Source of the DNA: a virus
Taxonomy: Duplodnaviria > Heunggongvirae > Uroviricota > Caudoviricetes
Strand: one strand, 5' to 3'
IMG/VR virus record: IMGVR_UViG_2718218397_000001
Length of the DNA: 41,326 nt
A program made the translations under genes and the position numbers. The notes below the pieces were generated by a model that was not told the origin of the DNA, ran no database searches, and saw only the letters and a list, made by a program, of their open reading frames with translations. Positions 5,009-41,326 of the stretch are shown one piece after another. Position 1 is the stretch's first letter, and each line of letters starts with the position of its first letter.

Positions 5009-5305
5009 TCAGTCATTACTGATAGCGCCATAGCGTGAGCGGTAATTACGCAGGCGCGGGTCGATATATTCAGGGAAGTGGGTATATGTGGCTTTGCGGA
5101 ATGGTCGGATTGATGTCTGGTAAATTCGCTCTCGTTCTTCTTTCTCTGCAAGCCATATACAGTGGCGAAATTCCTTTTCCTCTTTCGTTTCCTGCGGTAG
5201 CGACATTATCAGGTCGTAGTTTTTTCTGAATTTATCCAGCACCTCCGATACGGAATTGCCGGAACAGCGGCGCGGGTCATCCGCACCATACAGAGGCGCT
5301 GGCAT
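5009..5305 (-). CDS. Hypothetical protein (98 aa)
   Basis: ORF with aggaga SD directly downstream of the exonuclease gene. Confidence 0.45.
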   Translation of the reverse strand: MPAPLYGADDPRRCSGNSVSEVLDKFRKNYDLIMSLPQETKEEKEFRHCIWLAEKEERERIYQTSIRPFRKATYTHFPEYIDPRLRNYRSRYGAISND

Positions 5306-6394: not shown

Positions 6395-7102
6395 TTATGC
6401 CGCCTGTTTTAGCTCGTTAACTCTGATGTTCATTACCTGAACGCATTTAGCCTGCGCCTCCTCGTTTCCAGCCATTAATTGCCAGTCACGCTGATAACGC
6501 TCGATGAGTTTTTTCTTATCAGTTTCTTTCGATGCATAATCGCTGAAGTCTTTCAGGATTTGTTCGCAGTCAACCGATGGAGATTTCTGGTTGGTATTTT
6601 CTGGTGATGGTTTGTTATCTGATGCTGGGATTGCCCAGCCGGGCAGCGTTGGAGGGAGCCAGTAAAACCCTGTTCCATCCTTCAGTTTTGCCCTGTGCCA
6701 CCCCTGCTTTTTATCGAGAGATGTTTGTGCGAAACCTTCCTCAAGGTTATACAGATACCGACCGATTCCCCATTGAACGGCAGCGCGCTTCATTGCACCG
6801 GAACGACCACCTTTGACGGCTTCTACTTGCGTGTTTTCAGCAGCATCCCATTTGGTTACCCATTCGGAATCAATCTTGATTGATATGCCGCATTCAACTC
6901 CGCCGTTGTTGGGAATATCGCGGTATTCATTGCGCCATCCTGCTTTGCCGCAAACATCGTCCAGGCGTTTCATGATTGCCCTGTTCGTGACATAAGCCAG
7001 CACCATAGCCCACACTTTTCCATCGCGTGTTTTACCGCTTTGCTGTATTCGCCATTCGATATCTTCAGGGCTGAATGGCTCATCGAATTTATTCAAATCC
7101 AT
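6395..7102 (-). CDS. Rad52/Sak-like single-strand annealing protein
   Basis: 235-aa ORF with KGGRSGAMKRAAVQWGIGRYLY motif, positioned where lambda carries bet. Confidence 0.6.
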   Translation of the reverse strand: MDLNKFDEPFSPEDIEWRIQQSGKTRDGKVWAMVLAYVTNRAIMKRLDDVCGKAGWRNEYRDIPNNGGVECGISIKIDSEWVTKWDAAENTQVEAVKGGRSGAMKRAAVQWGIGRYLYNLEEGFAQTSLDKKQGWHRAKLKDGTGFYWLPPTLPGWAIPASDNKPSPENTNQKSPSVDCEQILKDFSDYASKETDKKKLIERYQRDWQLMAGNEEAQAKCVQVMNIRVNELKQAA

Positions 7103-16873: not shown

Positions 16874-17516
16874 TGGCAGCAAATACCGAAATATTTGGGT
16901 AGCTGGCGACCTGCACGGATGCTACACGAACCTGATGAACAAACTGGATACGATTGGATTCGACAACAAAAAAGACCTGCTCATCTCGGTTGGCGATTTG
17001 GTTGATCGCGGTACAGAGAACGTCGAATGTCTGGAATTAATCACATTCCCCTGGTTCAGAGCTGTACGTGGAAACCATGAGCAAATGATGATTGATGGCT
17101 TATCAGAGCGTGGAAACGTCAATCACTGGCTGTTTAATGGCGGTGGCTGGTTCTTTAATCTCGATTACGACAAAGAAATTCTGGCTAAAGCTCTTGCCCA
17201 TAAAGCAGATGAACTTCCGTTAATCATTGAACTGGTGAGTAAAGGTAAAAAATATGTCATCTGTCACGCCGATTATCCTTGTGACGAATACGAGTTTGGA
17301 AAGCCAGTTGATCATCAGCAGGTAATCTGGAACCGCGAACGAATCAGCAACTCACAAGACGGGATCGTGAAAGAAATCAAAGGCGCGGACACGTTCATCT
17401 TTGGTCATACGCCAGCAGTGAAACCACTCAAGTTTGCCAACCAGATGTATATCGATACCGGCGCAGTGTTCTGCGGAAACCTCACATTGATTCAGGTACA
17501 GGGAGAAGGCGCATGA
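16851..17516 (+). CDS. ninI: Ser/Thr protein phosphatase (lambda NinI-like, 221 aa)
   Basis: GDLHG, GDLVDRG, GNHE metallophosphatase motifs; internal start at 16851. Confidence 0.85.
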
Positions 17517-18136
17517 GACTCGAAAGCGTAGCTAAATTTCATTCGCCAAAAAGCCCGATGATGAGCGACTCACCACGGGCTACGGCTTCTGACTCTCTTT
17601 CCGGTACTGATGTGATGGCTGCTATGGGGATGGCGCAATCACAAGCCGGATTCGGAATGGCTGCATTCTGTGGTAAGCACGAACTCAGCCAGAATGACAA
17701 ACAAAAGGCTATCAACTATCTGATGCAATTTGCACACAAGGTATCGGGGAAATACCGTGGCGTTGCAAAGCTTGAAGGAAATACTAAGGCAAAGGTACTG
17801 CAAGTGCTCGCAACATTCGCTTATGCGGATTATTGCCGTAGTGCCGCGACGCCGGGTGCAAGATGCAGAGATTGCCACGGTACAGGCCGTGCGGTTGATA
17901 TAGCAAAAACAGAGCAGTGGGGGAGAGTTGTTGAGAAAGAGTGCGGAAGATGCAAAGGTGTCGGCTATTCAAGAATGCCAGCAAGCGCCGCATATCGCGC
18001 TGTAACGATGCTAATCCCAAACCTTACTCAACCCACCTGGTCACGCACTGTTAAGCCGCTGTATGACGCTCTGGTGGTGCAATGCCACAAAGAAGAGTCA
18101 ATCGCAGACAACATTTTGAATGCGGTCACACGTTAG
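17513..18136 (+). CDS. Q: Late antiterminator Q (lambda type)
   Basis: 207 aa, [26 protein letters not shown]... matches lambda Q from recall. Confidence 0.9.
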
Positions 18137-18178
18137 CAGCATGATTGCCACGGATGGCAACATATTAACGGCATAATA

Positions 18179-18208
18179 TTGACTTTTTGAATAAAGTTGG
18201 GTAAATTT
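18179..18208 (+). promoter_or_regulatory. Late promoter pR' (ttgact ... taaatt) with qut region
   Basis: Near-identity to recalled lambda pR' sequence. Confidence 0.7.
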
Positions 18209-18350
18209 GACCAAACAATGGGGCAATTCGCTCGTTGTGGTAGTGAGGTAAAAAGAGGCGGCGCTTACTACCGATTCCGCCTAGTTGGTCACTTCGACGT
18301 ATCGTCTGGAACTCCAACCATAGCAGGCTGAGAGGTCTGCAAAATGCAAT

Positions 18351-18408
18351 CCCGAAACAGTTCGCAGGTAATAGTTAGAGCCTGCACAACGGTTTCGGGA
18401 TTTTTTAT
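18351..18408 (+). terminator. tR' terminator (6S RNA 3' end)
   Basis: cccgaaac...gtttcggg hairpin followed by tttttt, as in lambda. Confidence 0.7.
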
Positions 18409-18410
18409 TT

Positions 18411-18485
18411 GGGTCAGTCGTATAAAGGTCATTACGGAAGGCTGTTAACCTTCTTATCGTGGTTCGAGTCCACGCTGTCCCGCCA
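18411..18485 (+). tRNA. tRNA-like gene, anticodon GUU (Asn) by manual folding; two stem mismatches
   Basis: Cloverleaf folds by hand: anticodon loop CUGUUAA, T-arm cgtgg-TTCGAGT-ccacg, 3' CCA; U-U mismatch in acceptor stem. Confidence 0.5.
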
Positions 18486-18490
18486 AATAT

Positions 18491-18566
18491 GCTGGTTTAG
18501 CTCCAATGGTAGAGCAGTCGCCTTGTAAGCGAATGGGTAGCGGTTCAAGTCCGTTAACCAGCACCA
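18491..18566 (+). tRNA. tRNA-Thr (anticodon UGU) by manual folding
   Basis: Perfect 7-bp acceptor stem, D-arm gctc/gagc, anticodon loop CUUGUAA, T-loop TTCAAGT, encoded CCA. Confidence 0.6.
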
Positions 18567-18808
18567 TAACTGAGCCGTAGCCACTGGCTATCCTGAATTC
18601 ATCAGTGATAGTTACGCTGCGGCCTTCTACACATGATCTTCGTGAAAGCGGGTAGCAAGAAGTTGCGCTAACAACCTCCTGCCGTTTTGCCCGTGCATAT
18701 CGGTCACGAACAAATCTGATTACTAAACACAGTAGCCTGGATTTGTTCTATCAGTAATCGACCTTATTCCTAATTAAATAGAGCAAATCCCCTTATTGGG
18801 GGTAAGAC

Positions 18809-19132
18809 ATGAAGATGCCAGAAAAACATGACCTGTTAGCCGCCATTCTCGCGGCAAAGGAACAAGGCATCGGGGCAATCCTTGCGTTTGCAATGGCGTA
18901 CCTTCGCGGCAGATATAATGGCGGTGCGTTTACAAAAACAGTAATCGACGCAACGATGTGCGCCATTATCGCCTGGTTCATTCGTGACCTTCTCGACTTC
19001 GCCGGACTAAGTAGCAATCTCGCTTATATAACGAGCGTGTTTATCGGCTACATCGGTACTGACTCGATTGGTTCGCTTATCAAACGCTTCGCTGCTAAAA
19101 AAGCCGGAGTAGAAGATGGTGGAAATCAATAA
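18809..19132 (+). CDS. S: Holin S (lambda type, dual-start)
   Basis: 107 aa [34 protein letters not shown]... matches lambda S. Confidence 0.9.
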
Positions 19133-19592
19133 TCAACGTAAGGCGTTCCTCGATATGCTGGCGTGGTCAGAGGGAACTGATAACGGACGTCAAAAAACCA
19201 GAAATCATGGTTATGACGTCATTGTTGGCGGAGAGCTATTCACTGATTACTCCGATCACCCTCGCAAACTTGTCACGCTAAACCCCAAACTCAAATCAAC
19301 AGCAGCCGGACGTTACCAGCTTCTTTCCCGTTGGTGGGATGCCTATCGCAATCAGCTTGGCCTGAAAGACTTCTCTCCGAAAAGCCAGGACGCTGTGGCG
19401 CTGCAACAGATTAAAGAACGTGGCGCTTTACCGATGATTGATCGCGGTGATATTCGTCAGGCTATCGACCGTTGCAGCAATATCTGGGCTTCACTGCCGG
19501 GGGCTGGTTATGGTCAGTTCGAGCATAAGGCTGACAACCTGATTGCAAAATTCAAAGAGGCTGGCGGAACGGTCAGAGAGATTGAGGTATGA
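19116..19592 (+). CDS. R: Endolysin R (lytic transglycosylase, lambda type)
   Basis: 158 aa matching recalled lambda R. Confidence 0.9.
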
Positions 19593-20056
19593 GCAGAGTA
19601 ACCGCGATTATCTCCGCTCTGGTTATCTGCATCATCGTTTGCCTGTCATGGGCTGTTAATCACTACCGTGATAACGCCATCGCCTACAAAGAACAGCGAG
19701 ATAAAAAAGTCAGTGAGCTGAAGCAGGCGACCGCCACCATTACTGACATGCAGCAACGCCAGCGTGCTGCTGATGCACTCGATGCTAAATACACGAAGGA
19801 GTTAGCTGATGCGAAAGCTGAAAATGATGCTCTTCGGCGCAAGCTTGATAATGGTGGCAGGGTGCTCGTCAAAGGAAAATGCCCTGTGCCATCCTCAGCC
19901 GAAACCTCCGGCGCCTCCGGCATGGGCAATGATGCCACCGTCGAACTCTCTCCAGTTGCTGGACGAAACGTTCTCGGTGTCCGGGACGGAATTATCCGCG
20001 ACCAAACAGCACTGAGAACGCTTCAGGAATACATCAGGACGCAATGCCTTCGATGA
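19589..20056 (+). CDS. Rz: Spanin inner-membrane subunit Rz
   Basis: 155 aa, N-terminal TM then coiled coil; position after R. Confidence 0.85.
19809..20015 (+). CDS. Rz1: Spanin outer-membrane lipoprotein Rz1 (embedded in Rz, +1 frame)
   Basis: Lipobox VAGC and Pro-rich mature region, fully embedded in Rz. Confidence 0.75.
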
Positions 20057-20402: not shown

Positions 20403-20945
20403 ATGAACTACCCAACCGTTGTTAACGATATAGATTTCAGAGACCTAATTTTTGTAGCAAACAACGATCCGGTTACAGATTCTTTTATGGTGGCAAAAGC
20501 ATTTGGAAAGCTGCCGAAGAACGTGGTTCGTGACATTGAACGAACCATAGAAGCTTGCCCTCCTGAGTTTGATACAAAGCTCAACTTTGAGCTTTGCTAT
20601 AAAAACAATGAGTTACAGAATGGTAAGCCGCAAAAATTCTACCGTCTCCGCAAGGATGGGTTGATGCTTTTGGTTATGTCCTACACCAAAAAAGAAGCAA
20701 TGCGTATCAAAATTGCTTACATCAACGCATTCAACTGGATGTACGCCATGCTTCAGGTTGGTCATCGTCAATTTGAAGAAGAGAGAAATGCCGTAATGCT
20801 GGAGTACATGAAAGAGAAGGATGTTGCCAGCATGTCAGGCCGCCTGCTTAATCGCTGGGGAAAAATTAAGAAGCCTCAGCTGCTGGCGAGAATTGAACGC
20901 CTTGAACAGCACGGGCAAACCGTAATCCCCGGACTCACCAATTAA
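20403..20945 (+). CDS. rha: Rha-family phage regulatory protein
   Basis: N-terminal TDSFMVAKAFGKLPKNVVRDIERTIE resembles the Phage_pRha domain. Confidence 0.65.
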   Translation: MNYPTVVNDIDFRDLIFVANNDPVTDSFMVAKAFGKLPKNVVRDIERTIEACPPEFDTKLNFELCYKNNELQNGKPQKFYRLRKDGLMLLVMSYTKKEAMRIKIAYINAFNWMYAMLQVGHRQFEEERNAVMLEYMKEKDVASMSGRLLNRWGKIKKPQLLARIERLEQHGQTVIPGLTN

Positions 20946-36101: not shown

Positions 36102-36368
36102 CTATGTTTCCTTTTTATTATTGCTATACATGGTCTTAAGCGTTTCAAAAACCATTTTCTTAACCATATCAGATTGTTGTTCTGCCATACGCTCTGCATC
36201 GTCAATGTAAACGGATGCAGAGCTTTGTTTAGCCAATGATTCTTCAATCGCTGCAATTATCTCTGAGTTCAGCGACCTGTTATTCATCTTCGCACGCTGC
36301 TTAATTTTCGCGTGGAGTTCATGCGGAAGTCTCAAGTGAAACTGCGCCTCGTCGTATTTGCTGTACAT
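36102..36368 (-). CDS. mnt: Mnt-like ribbon-helix-helix repressor
   Basis: FHLRLPHELHAKIKQRA and C-terminal DAERMAEQQSDMVKKMVFETLK resemble P22 Mnt. Confidence 0.7.
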   Translation of the reverse strand: MYSKYDEAQFHLRLPHELHAKIKQRAKMNNRSLNSEIIAAIEESLAKQSSASVYIDDAERMAEQQSDMVKKMVFETLKTMYSNNKKET

Positions 36369-36489
36369 CCTTGATGCCTCACCAGTTGGGTGGAATGGCA
36401 TCGTAACTTACTGGATAAATACTCAATAGTACCATTTCGGTATGCAATCACATCATGGTTGCATCATATCATTCGTCTGGAGCAATGAA

Positions 36490-38762: not shown

Positions 38763-39755
38763 TCAATTGCTTATTTTATTGTATATTTTTATTGTTGTAA
38801 AATATGCGATAAAGAAACATAAGAAAGTGTATAATATAGTGTCTATAGAGTTATGCAGATACACCTTCAAACCAATCATTTTGAAAGATGAATAAATAAA
38901 TGTTTTAAGCATTTGCTCTGTTCCGCAAAGCACTAGAGTTGATTGCCCTATTAATATAACTTGCTTTATCTTTATGCGCTTTGCAATGGTAATGTTTGGG
39001 ATAAATAGCGCTGCCGTTATAATAAACGATGCAAGTATTTTTAAATATTCGTTTTTAATTCCATTATATATTGAGGCTGCCCCATAAAAATAAACATAAA
39101 TAAATAACGCCATCGACAATGAGCAAATTATGTAAGAGGTTATTTTTGATGTTAGGTTGCCATTATATTCTTGTGGCTCTTTAATATAACAGGAAAGGTA
39201 TGCGCCCAAAGCATAATAAGCAATATACCTTAAAGCGCTGTCAATATTAAAAAACAACTTTGGCTGAACACCTATTTTCATAATTGAAGAAACAAAGAAT
39301 ATCGCAATGCATGTTATGAAAATAAGATGCCTATTCTTTATTATAAGCTGTATAAATGAGTGCATCATTATAATAACAAACAAACATGGAAGAAACCAAA
39401 GTGATGCAGCAAATATGTGGTTTCTGATTCCTGGTATTATCTGGCTGGCAAGCTCTCTTACCTGATGGAAGTCATAATTATAGTATAGAGAAAAGAAAAT
39501 AAGGGAAATAAGCGAGAATGTAAAATACGGTATCAGTATCCTTTTTGAGGATTTAATCGCTATAATATTAAAATCATATAGAGAAGAGCATTTTTTAAAA
39601 AAAATCCCGGAAATAAAAAAGAATAACGGGACGTGAAATGAAAACACAAAAGGATATAACTGCTTTGCATTATCGCCAAAGTGTCCTAAGTAAATCCAAA
39701 ATATGGCCACTGCCTTTAATGAATCAATCCATTCTAAACGATGGTTGGCATTCAT
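38763..39755 (-). CDS. oac: O-antigen acetyltransferase (acyltransferase-3 family, Sf6 Oac-like)
   Basis: 330 aa, many TM segments, N-terminal RLEWIDSLKAVAIFWIYLGHF motif; very AT-rich; next to tailspike and int. Confidence 0.75.
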   Translation of the reverse strand: MNANHRLEWIDSLKAVAIFWIYLGHFGDNAKQLYPFVFSFHVPLFFFISGIFFKKCSSLYDFNIIAIKSSKRILIPYFTFSLISLIFFSLYYNYDFHQVRELASQIIPGIRNHIFAASLWFLPCLFVIIMMHSFIQLIIKNRHLIFITCIAIFFVSSIMKIGVQPKLFFNIDSALRYIAYYALGAYLSCYIKEPQEYNGNLTSKITSYIICSLSMALFIYVYFYGAASIYNGIKNEYLKILASFIITAALFIPNITIAKRIKIKQVILIGQSTLVLCGTEQMLKTFIYSSFKMIGLKVYLHNSIDTILYTFLCFFIAYFTTIKIYNKISN

Positions 39756-40168: not shown

Positions 40169-41326
40169 TCAGGAGAACTTTTCATCAATCCAGTCCGCCC
40201 ACCACTGCATCATTTCTCTGCGCTTATCGAGATACTGAGCATGGTTGTAAATACCGCGCACAGATCCGCCGTTGGCATGTGCAAGTTGCACTTCAATGGC
40301 GTCGGCAGGCCATTCGTGCTCGTTCATAATCGTGCTGAATTCATGCCTGAATCCGTGACCGCTTTCCAGACCCTCATAGCCGATTTGTTTGATCACAAGT
40401 AGCACCGCGTTCTCGCAGATTGGCTTTTTCTTATCGTTGCGCCCGGCAAAAACAAACTCTGATACTGGTTTAGTGATGGAGCTTAGCGTAGTGAGAAGTT
40501 CAACCACCTGGTCCGACATCGGGACCACATGAATTTTGCGGCCCTTCATCACACTGGCGTCGATGGTGATAATCCTGTTTTCAAAATCGACGTTCTTCCA
40601 TAGCATAGAACGAAGCTCTTTCGTTCTTAGGGCTGTGTAGCGTAAAACTTTGGTCGCAATGAGCGATACGATACTTCCTGAAAATGTTGCCAGTGCTTTG
40701 TTGAATGCAGGGATCTGGTCTGCAGGTAAAAACGGGAAGTTCTTCTTGCGGTATCCCTTCATGGCGTCTGCAAGGTCAGGTGCCGGGTTATATTTAGCCC
40801 TTCCGGTGACAATAGCGTAACGGAAAACCTCGCCGCATCTTCTGCGTGCTTTGTTGGCTCGCTCCATTGCACCGCGATCTTCAAATCTGCGGATTACTTC
40901 CAGCAGTTGCATCGGCTCAATATCCTGAATTTCAAGACCACCGATGATGGGTAAAATGTCGTCATCAAACATTTTGGCAAGTTCAGTTGCATAGCCTACT
41001 GACCAGACTTGCTTCTTGTGCTCGTACCATTCCTTGTAAATGGCACTAAAGGAATTGTTGTTAGACGAAGCCTTTTTCGCTTTTACCGGATCGATGCCAA
41101 CCGAGATGTCTTTCCTCGCGGTCCATGCTTTATCTCTTGCCTCCTGCAAAGTCATAAGCGGATATTTTCCTACGGTCAGTATTTTTTCCTTACCGTCAAT
41201 CTTGTAGCGAAGCTGCCATACCTTTTTCCCGGATACAGGGACATAAAGGTACAGGCCATTACCATCGAGAAGGCGGTATGGTTTTTCTTTCGGCTTTGCT
41301 GCTTCAATCTGCTTAACGGTGAGCAT
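40169..41326 (-). CDS. intS: Tyrosine integrase, P4 type (IntS-like); start at window edge
   Basis: 385-aa ORF I recognise as E. coli CPS-53 IntS-like (MLTVKQIEAAKPKEKPYRLLDGNGLYLYV...). Confidence 0.85.
   Translation of the reverse strand: MLTVKQIEAAKPKEKPYRLLDGNGLYLYVPVSGKKVWQLRYKIDGKEKILTVGKYPLMTLQEARDKAWTARKDISVGIDPVKAKKASSNNNSFSAIYKEWYEHKKQVWSVGYATELAKMFDDDILPIIGGLEIQDIEPMQLLEVIRRFEDRGAMERANKARRRCGEVFRYAIVTGRAKYNPAPDLADAMKGYRKKNFPFLPADQIPAFNKALATFSGSIVSLIATKVLRYTALRTKELRSMLWKNVDFENRIITIDASVMKGRKIHVVPMSDQVVELLTTLSSITKPVSEFVFAGRNDKKKPICENAVLLVIKQIGYEGLESGHGFRHEFSTIMNEHEWPADAIEVQLAHANGGSVRGIYNHAQYLDKRREMMQWWADWIDEKFS

Follow-up and report, generated by a model that had tools for sequence, protein, structure and literature searches.

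A known phage-21-type tRNA-Asn/tRNA-Thr cassette behind a lambda-type late promoter in a P22-like prophage: candidate nuclease-resistant replacement tRNAs

The late leader of a P22-like prophage carries two tandem tRNA genes, tRNA-Asn(GUU) followed by tRNA-Thr(UGU), in the slot between the terminator tR' and the holin gene. This pair is not new. It is the already-known phage-21-type Asn/Thr cassette, linked here to a lambda-type Q/pR'/tR' module. We favour, with moderate confidence, the reading that the cassette is functional and transcribed late, and that its chief benefit is to provide replacement tRNAs that withstand tRNA-cutting nucleases. The stretch of DNA analysed, called the window throughout, is the whole of the 41,326-nucleotide IMG/VR virus record IMGVR_UViG_2718218397_000001, and its features are listed in Table 1.

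Table 1. Features of the window that bear on the tRNA cassette and its prophage context.
Feature	Position	Strand	Evidence or remark
Abc2, anti-RecBCD, full-length	5009-5305	-	phrog_656, E = 1e-56
Erf recombinase	6395-7102	-	
Q, late antiterminator, lambda type	17513-18136	+	207-aa ORF; Pfam Antiterm PF03589, E = 1e-57
pR' late promoter (TTGACT-17-TAAATT)	18179-18207	+	promoter scan; aligns to lambda pR'
tR' terminator	18349-18410	+	hairpin 18349-18401, T-tract TTTTTTATTT 18401-18410; dG -28.3 kcal/mol
tRNA-Asn(GUU)	18411-18485	+	75 nt; ARAGORN; Rfam RF00005 55.3 bits, E = 2e-9
Spacer AATAT	18486-18490	+	5 nt between tRNA-Asn and tRNA-Thr
tRNA-Thr(UGU)	18491-18566	+	76 nt; ARAGORN; Rfam RF00005 61.5 bits, E = 5e-11
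S leader, lambda-homologous	18567-18808	+	alignments; starts with TAACTGAGCCGTAGCC, which forms the cassette's conserved right-hand boundary
S, R, Rz lysis genes, lambda type	18809-20056	+	ORFs; homologous annotation in Kapi1 and Sf6
Rha-family regulator (Phage_pRha + ORF11CD3)	20403-20945		between Rz and terminase genes
Arc/Mnt-like repressor	36102-36401	-	upstream of tailspike
Acyl_transf_3 protein	38763-39755	-	adjoins integrase
Integrase	40169-41326	-	far right end of window

ARAGORN detects exactly two tRNA genes in the 41-kb window, both on the + strand, and Rfam agrees, both scores lying above the RF00005 gathering score of 29. Both sequences have the features of that family: a 7-nt anticodon loop with U33 and a purine at position 37, the GG of the D-loop and a TTCRA T-loop. 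Both genes also encode CCA. An initial annotation, made from the letters of the sequence, had described two tRNA-like genes 5 nt apart at this location, and the tRNA finders accept both. Its structural details hold as well. The first gene has the anticodon GUU, with one mismatch in the acceptor stem (U4.U69) and one in the D-stem (U13.U22), while the second is a clean cloverleaf with the anticodon UGU, apart from a G27.A43 mismatch that tops the anticodon stem. The anticodon arms read GAAGG-CUGUUAA-CCUUC in tRNA-Asn and GUCGC-CUUGUAA-GCGAA in tRNA-Thr. In E. coli, aminoacylation studies have established that the identity of tRNA-Asn is determined by the anticodon G34-U35-U36 and the discriminator G73, and that of tRNA-Thr by G1-C72, C2-G71, G35 and U36. 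All of these elements are present in the window, including G73 in tRNA-Asn and both terminal pairs in tRNA-Thr.

The D-arm of the tRNA-Thr, GCTC-CAATGGTA-GAGC, is unusual in appearance. An identical arm (TAGCTCCAATGGTAGAGC) occurs, among the matches listed, in chromosomal tRNAs of Helicobacter, Sulfurimonas and Arcobacter (Campylobacterota) and of Coriobacteriia, and the arm is, on the strength of such matches, best regarded as a natural variant. As a probe for diverged copies of the cassette in genome contigs it is non-specific, since it matched these chromosomal tRNAs. The likeness may hint at a distant origin of the phage Thr gene. The P1 record likewise remarks on the similarity of the P1 tRNA-Thr to Campylobacter.

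The surroundings of the cassette are those of a lambda-type late leader. The initial annotation placed the tRNAs among pR', the tR' hairpin and the S leader, and this context is recovered by promoter scanning, RNA folding and alignment to lambda, respectively. The Q DNA of the window is about 96-98% identical to that of lambda and HK446. The terminator scan missed tR', which has a long, interrupted stem, and the terminator was confirmed by RNA folding. The late transcript bears the tRNAs, and its first protein genes are S, R and Rz. A scan of both strands from 18000 to 18900 returned the pR'-like site as its single match, and thus no promoter belonging to the cassette itself. Because the cassette has no promoter of its own, and because tRNA-Asn begins right after the tR' T-tract, the tRNAs would be made within the Q-antiterminated late transcript. 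In the transcriptome of a Kapi1 lysogen, a clear antisense signal lies opposite these tRNAs, and a similar signal is seen in the Salmonella prophage BTP1 (PMC12922286). The consensus scan of 18000-18900 detected no - strand promoter behind such a signal.

The junctions with lambda are sharp. Identity ends at position 18408 and restarts at 18568, so that 159 bp stand in place of about 163 bp of lambda (J02459, ~44782-44944), a stretch that takes in the 3' end of orf-64 and continues past it. This matches the replacement of about 160 bp just past the tR' T-run that had been recognised at the outset. The interval had also been described as otherwise lambda-identical. Its flanks are indeed of lambda type, but they are only about 95.6% identical to lambda. 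At the left junction, the window and phage 21 both read TTTTTTAT-TT, and lambda reads TTTTTTAT-AT. Since the window agrees here with phage 21 and not with lambda, the crossover is placed inside the T-tract TTTTTTAT, which is common to both terminators. The slot between tR' and AACTGAGCCGTAGCC is variable in general, comprising 163 bp in lambda, about 200 bp in E212, about 300 bp in IME10 and the tRNA pair in the window. The E212 and IME10 inserts are unrelated or partly related sequence without a tRNA. No tRNA-like sequence was detected in the slot of lambda, IME10 or E212 by ARAGORN or by Rfam at E <= 10. The idea that the ~163 bp of lambda are a decayed tRNA pair was accordingly rejected.

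The window as a whole is a mosaic P22-like (Lederbergvirus) prophage at argW, with Sf6, IME10, CUS-3 and Kapi1 among its kin, into which a lambda-type Q-lysis module has been incorporated. Bases 1 to ~1690 are host chromosome and form the left flank, and TGGTGTCCCCTGCAG at 1690-1704 agrees with the argW att core described for Kapi1. Together, this host flank and att core indicate that the window is an integrated prophage. A LacY-family 'oligosaccharide MFS transporter' gene at 1-1248, which is carried by 2714 of 5426 E. coli genomes, was considered as phage cargo and rejected, as it belongs to the host flank adjoining the att core. The highly expressed 'Tad2-like' gene of Kapi1 was also considered as a constituent of the window and rejected, as the ORF at that place belongs to the Rha family. 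The Acyl_transf_3 protein could, as in Sf6, be an acetylase of the O-antigen.

Three properties characterise the phage-21-type cassette: a tandem order of Asn then Thr, a slot between terminator and holin, and high sequence identity. The window has all three. Against phage 21 (AJ237660), 165 of 166 bases are equal and both mature tRNAs are 100% identical, the sole difference being T18488 (C in phage 21), which lies in the spacer. The order of the genes, the length of the 5-nt spacer, the slot directly after the tR' T-tract and the right junction TAACTGAGCC are also common to both, whereas the upstream module is Q21 in phage 21 and lambda-type Q/pR'/tR' in the window. Copies in Sf6, SfI, Kapi1, mEp506, HK446, Bas106 and E. 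coli are 97.6-100% identical and occupy the same Q-to-holin slot; Sf6 and SfI, unlike the window, have Q21-type sequence upstream, and the cassette junctions of Sf6 are those of the window. The 701-bp Q-S interval is 98% identical in HK446, mEp506, phiv205-1 and Kapi1.

Annotation of the cassette is uneven. The pair is annotated in Sf6, SfI, Kapi1 and mEp506, and the Sf6 record places it directly after tR' as 'similar to phage 21'. Among the four records that share the 701-bp interval, two annotate tRNA-Asn and tRNA-Thr. The HK446 (JQ086372/NC_019714) and phage 21 (AJ237660) records contain the cassette at 99-100% with the tRNAs unannotated, and that of phage 21 bears only an 'aRNA' label that overlaps the cassette start. 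According to the SfI genome paper, Asn(GUU) and Thr(UGU) genes stand in tandem downstream of Q; the paper lists one or both tRNAs as common to Sf6, ST64T, PS3 and phage 21, and cites Guo, Kainz and Roberts (1991) for the description of the phage 21 cassette (PMC3636060).

The cassette is widespread. Among 5426 complete E. coli genomes, 368 (~7%) contain the 166-bp pair, which PGAP annotates there as tRNA-Thr and tRNA-Asn, and 213 phage records have it as well. Variation was sampled from 120 IMG/VR contigs that contain the Asn D-arm. The composition is Asn-Thr in 96 of these, and the rest mostly add Phe, Arg(UCU) or Gly(UCC). The upstream terminator is of phage-21 type in ~89 of 115 copies, of lambda type in ~15 and of Klebsiella type in ~10, which makes the lambda-type linkage of the window a minority form. 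The downstream junction is conserved, with one 20-mer common to ~92 of 103 copies.

The initial annotation had allowed that the Asn gene, given its mismatches, might be either functional or decaying. Comparison of 17 full-length Asn and 20 full-length Thr variants drawn from the same contigs addresses this directly. The Asn cloverleaf is paired in 90% of cells, and 6 pairs have changed on both sides, among them 5-68, 6-67, 7-66, 28-42 and 29-41. The Thr cloverleaf is paired in 94.5% of cells, with 4 pairs changed on both sides (3-70, 5-68, 6-67 and 49-65). When the 3' partners were slid by 1-3 columns as a control, pairing fell to 22-53% (33-53% for Asn). The covariation score was reached in 0 of 500 shuffles, although the variants are closely related and this control therefore overstates significance. 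The mismatches themselves are stable. All 17 Asn variants have U13.U22 and all 20 Thr variants have G27.A43, and in 15 of the 17 Asn variants, over three acceptor-stem backgrounds, U4.U69 is unpaired. C39 is similarly kept by 16 of the 17 Asn variants, even as compensated changes accumulate in the acceptor stems. Since the mismatches are lineage-stable and the neighbouring pairs covary, the question resolves towards a functional tRNA-Asn, as the conserved GUU anticodon and G73 would also suggest, and the suspicion of decay falls away. The mismatches are traits conserved in the family, and neither gene has the look of a relic.

Two families of defence nuclease are known to cut tRNAs with these anticodons. 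P2 Old, the nuclease responsible for the classic P2-lambda interference, kills by cleaving host tRNA-Thr(UGU) where its anticodon stem has a paired CNG motif (28-30/40-42), and attacks tRNA-Asn(GUU), Lys and Val more slowly (PMC12445682). The AriB nuclease of PARIS cuts between positions 40 and 41, and its host targets are Lys(UUU), Thr(UGU) and Asn(GUU). Its determinants are U36-A-A-U39-C40, position 41 and U16, and rescue from PARIS requires the resistant T5 Lys, Thr and Asn tRNAs jointly (PMC12409363). The anticodons of the window, UGU and GUU, are thus those of host targets of both P2-Old and AriB, and both window tRNAs carry substitutions at the determinants of the two enzymes. The tRNA-Thr has U28-A42 and G27.A43 in place of the C28-G42 and A27-U43 of host thrU, giving UCG/CGA at the position of the CNG motif, with G39 and G41 (positions 36-41 are UAAGCG, against UAAUCA in the host). 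The tRNA-Asn has AAG/CUU, C39 and U41 (UAACCU, against UAAUCC in the host). Both tRNAs have A at the base that counting along the D-loop assigns to position 16, a numbering that is approximate because loop lengths differ. G39 replaces U39 in the tRNA-Thr of T5, N4, P1 and the window, and U39 has also been lost from the tRNA-Asn of T5, N4 and the window.

For the tRNA-Thr, experimental results on an identical molecule are available. The phage 21 tRNA, named tRNA-Thr21, gives protection to Old+Gam+ cells and withstands the purified P2-Old enzyme. This is ascribed to C28U/G42A together with a shorter anticodon stem, and phage tRNA-Thr gave only partial rescue in that study (PMC12445682). Dependence of rescue on the anticodon has been shown for the analogous Thr6 tRNA. 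The U28-A42 pair and G27.A43 mismatch of the window tRNA-Thr are exactly the features credited for this resistance. That both window tRNAs differ from the host at published cleavage determinants favours the replacement-tRNA reading. A limited literature search returned no paper that ties the phage-21-type tRNA-Asn to Old or PARIS. Colicin E5, which targets tRNA-Asn, was considered as a source of selection and rejected by reasoning, as phage and host tRNA share the anticodon loop CUGUUAA, which would offer no escape.

In the favoured reading, a phage-21-type cassette would have recombined behind the lambda-type Q/pR'/tR' of this prophage. Transcription from pR' and Q-dependent read-through of tR' would then produce the tRNAs, perhaps supplemented at a low level by natural read-through, and host tRNA-processing enzymes (RNase P and 3' trimming) would release them from the late-mRNA leader, as is standard in tRNA biology. 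Toprim nucleases such as P2 Old and PARIS AriB, encoded by P2-like prophages and P4-like satellites, cut host Thr(UGU) and, more weakly, Asn(GUU). The phage copies, which share the anticodons and identity elements of the host tRNAs and differ from them in anticodon stem and D-loop, would be spared, and the ACA and AAY codons that are frequent in late genes would still be readable after cleavage of the host tRNAs. From these considerations we infer resistance of the tRNA-Asn, AriB resistance of either tRNA, and a benefit to this particular phage.

Some features of the prophage and of the cassette family sit less easily with defence. The window has Abc2 instead of Gam, and Abc2, unlike Gam, does not activate P2-Old (PMC12445682). 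Consequently, P2-Old itself may never fire in response to this phage, and the pressure acting on it may come from PARIS or another Old-family system. Two further points count against the defence model. The tRNAs are late-only and the Q gene contains 4 ACA codons, so a nuclease that acts quickly could prevent the tRNAs from being made. In addition, the 28-42 pair is C-G in the Klebsiella-type Asn variants, which restores the paired CNG motif, and loss of this motif is therefore not conserved for tRNA-Asn.

The cassette might instead serve pure codon supply, increasing the amount of tRNA-Thr(UGU), a single-copy, low-abundance species in the host, and of tRNA-Asn for the benefit of ACA- and AAU-rich late genes, independently of any defence system. 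We regard this as unlikely to be the whole explanation, yet it has a real basis. A comparison of codon usage finds ACA enriched about 2-fold, with 15.4 occurrences per 1000 codons in the window, where it makes up 30% of Thr codons, against 7.2 per 1000 and 12% in a K-12 sample processed by the same method (Fisher p = 3e-10). AAU is also enriched, and the tailspike gene alone contains 15 ACA and 41 AAU codons. The late genes of lambda, which has no such tRNAs, are host-like in their use of ACA (8.1 per 1000), and this difference makes codon supply a viable alternative. The same ACA bias was found in SfI (PMC3636060). Placement on the late transcript also fits a need of the late genes. The codons read by the window tRNAs are ACA, ACG and ACU, and AAC and AAU. 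However, the rarest and most enriched codons, AGA, AUA and AGG, receive no phage tRNA, even though they are about 3-fold enriched (9.8 vs 3.5, 11.7 vs 3.4 and 4.7 vs 2.3 per 1000, window vs K-12). The use of Asn is barely raised, with total Asn codons just 1.2-fold up, and E. coli has four asn genes. The SfI authors likewise found no bias that would explain the tRNA-Asn, and in 2013 called its significance 'not clear' (PMC3636060). IME10, which has the same late gene set and an equal ACA load (14.7 vs 15.6 per 1000), lacks the cassette. Given the uncovered AGA, AUA and AGG codons, the near-normal Asn usage and the example of IME10, this pair of tRNAs is not what codon need alone would predict, and codon need leaves the invariant G27.A43 and the divergent anticodon stems unexplained. 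Defence and codon supply are not exclusive, since the more a phage relies on ACA, the more it stands to gain from a resistant tRNA, and codon supply may be regarded as either a contributor or a rival.

Explanations in which decoding is incidental or absent fare less well. A role in RNA processing, with RNase P or RNase E sites that part the pR' leader from the S-R-Rz mRNA, or as a module marking a recombination boundary, would fit the position of the cassette exactly between tR' and the S leader, its sharp and reused junctions, and its association with at least three different types of upstream terminator. Chimeras are also in keeping with such a role. The second tRNA gene of JLK-2012 joins a phage-21-type Thr 5' half to a degenerate 3' half of host thrU and receives no ARAGORN call, and one IMG/VR contig has the same chimera with an exact thrU half, both of which suggest that the phage tRNA gene has recombined with its host counterpart. 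Nevertheless, we consider this role improbable. Anticodons, identity elements and CCA are conserved, and would be needless in a mere processing site; rescue by the identical Thr tRNA requires UGU-type function, if the anticodon dependence seen with Thr6 applies; and lambda, IME10 and E212 manage without a tRNA at this slot. It is more improbable still, to the point of being hardly credible, that the cassette is a neutral or decaying passenger in which one or both genes, and especially the Asn gene, are relics. The U4.U69 and U13.U22 mismatches would agree with this, as would damage to relatives of the second gene. In phage L, ST64T, PS3 and ST-32 that gene has a 4-nt deletion and many substitutions and is not called by ARAGORN, JLK-2012 carries the degenerate chimera, and SPN9CC has a G1.A72 change. 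The phage L record labels its damaged gene tRNA-Leu(TAA), which may represent a decayed Thr gene or a mis-annotation. In the window, by contrast, both tRNAs score far above the Rfam threshold, and in the family the mismatches persist over three acceptor-stem backgrounds while the flanking pairs covary. The cassette is at least 99% identical in 253 of 374 matching E. coli records (from the 368 genomes), and in vivo activity is on record for the identical Thr tRNA (PMC12445682). Replacement tRNAs that escape cleavage are retained as the preferred account of the pair.

As a genome feature, the cassette is ordinary. What makes it useful is that it neatly illustrates how the understanding of phage tRNAs is currently shifting: for this minimal tRNA cargo of a temperate phage, the targets of tRNA-cutting defence nucleases are a better match than codon rarity. 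The point worth experiment is the tRNA-Asn, as a candidate nuclease-resistant partner of tRNA-Thr21. More tentatively, and with less confidence than we place in the replacement role itself, the Asn-Thr pair could be a matched two-tRNA counter-defence unit that mirrors the shared secondary targets of Old-family and PARIS nucleases, in which tRNA-Asn is the predicted resistant half.

Other phages provide several points of comparison. Stx phages of the 933W type carry an ileZ-argN-argO cargo downstream of Q, in the late leader after the Q-dependent terminator and before the first late genes. These tRNAs read AUA, AGA and AGG, which are among the host's rarest codons and are over-used in phage or toxin genes, as codon supply would predict. 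The window was initially likened to this Stx-type cargo with different tRNAs, and the likeness is sound, as the same late-leader slot is used for Asn(GUU) and Thr(UGU). It does not extend to rare-codon decoding, since the window has Asn and Thr tRNAs and leaves AUA, AGA and AGG uncovered. The Lys, Thr and Asn tRNAs with which T5 counters PARIS (PMC11464382, PMC12409363) combine the anticodons of the host targets with substitutions at the determinants, as do those of the window. The T5 tRNAs are only 62-66% identical to the window tRNAs, however, and the window differs in having no tRNA-Lys, in being temperate and in expressing its tRNAs late.

P1 and P7, with tandem Asn/Thr genes, and N4, with Asn-Ser-Thr, also have a minimal tRNA set in which Asn(GUU) lies beside or near Thr(UGU). 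The N4 record (EF056009) has no annotated features over the stretch containing Asn-Ser-Thr. The Thr genes of P1 and N4 are 83-88% identical to that of the window (88% for N4). Between P1 and N4 the Asn genes agree at 91%, but with the lambdoid Asn they reach only 59-64% identity, which suggests that the pairing of these two tRNAs arose more than once. The genomic context in P1 and N4 differs from that of the window, and the P1 Asn keeps a host-like UAAUCA. If the Asn-Thr pair does prove to be a counter-defence unit, the same pressure would explain why Asn(GUU) is found beside or near Thr(UGU) independently in lambdoid phages, P1 and N4.
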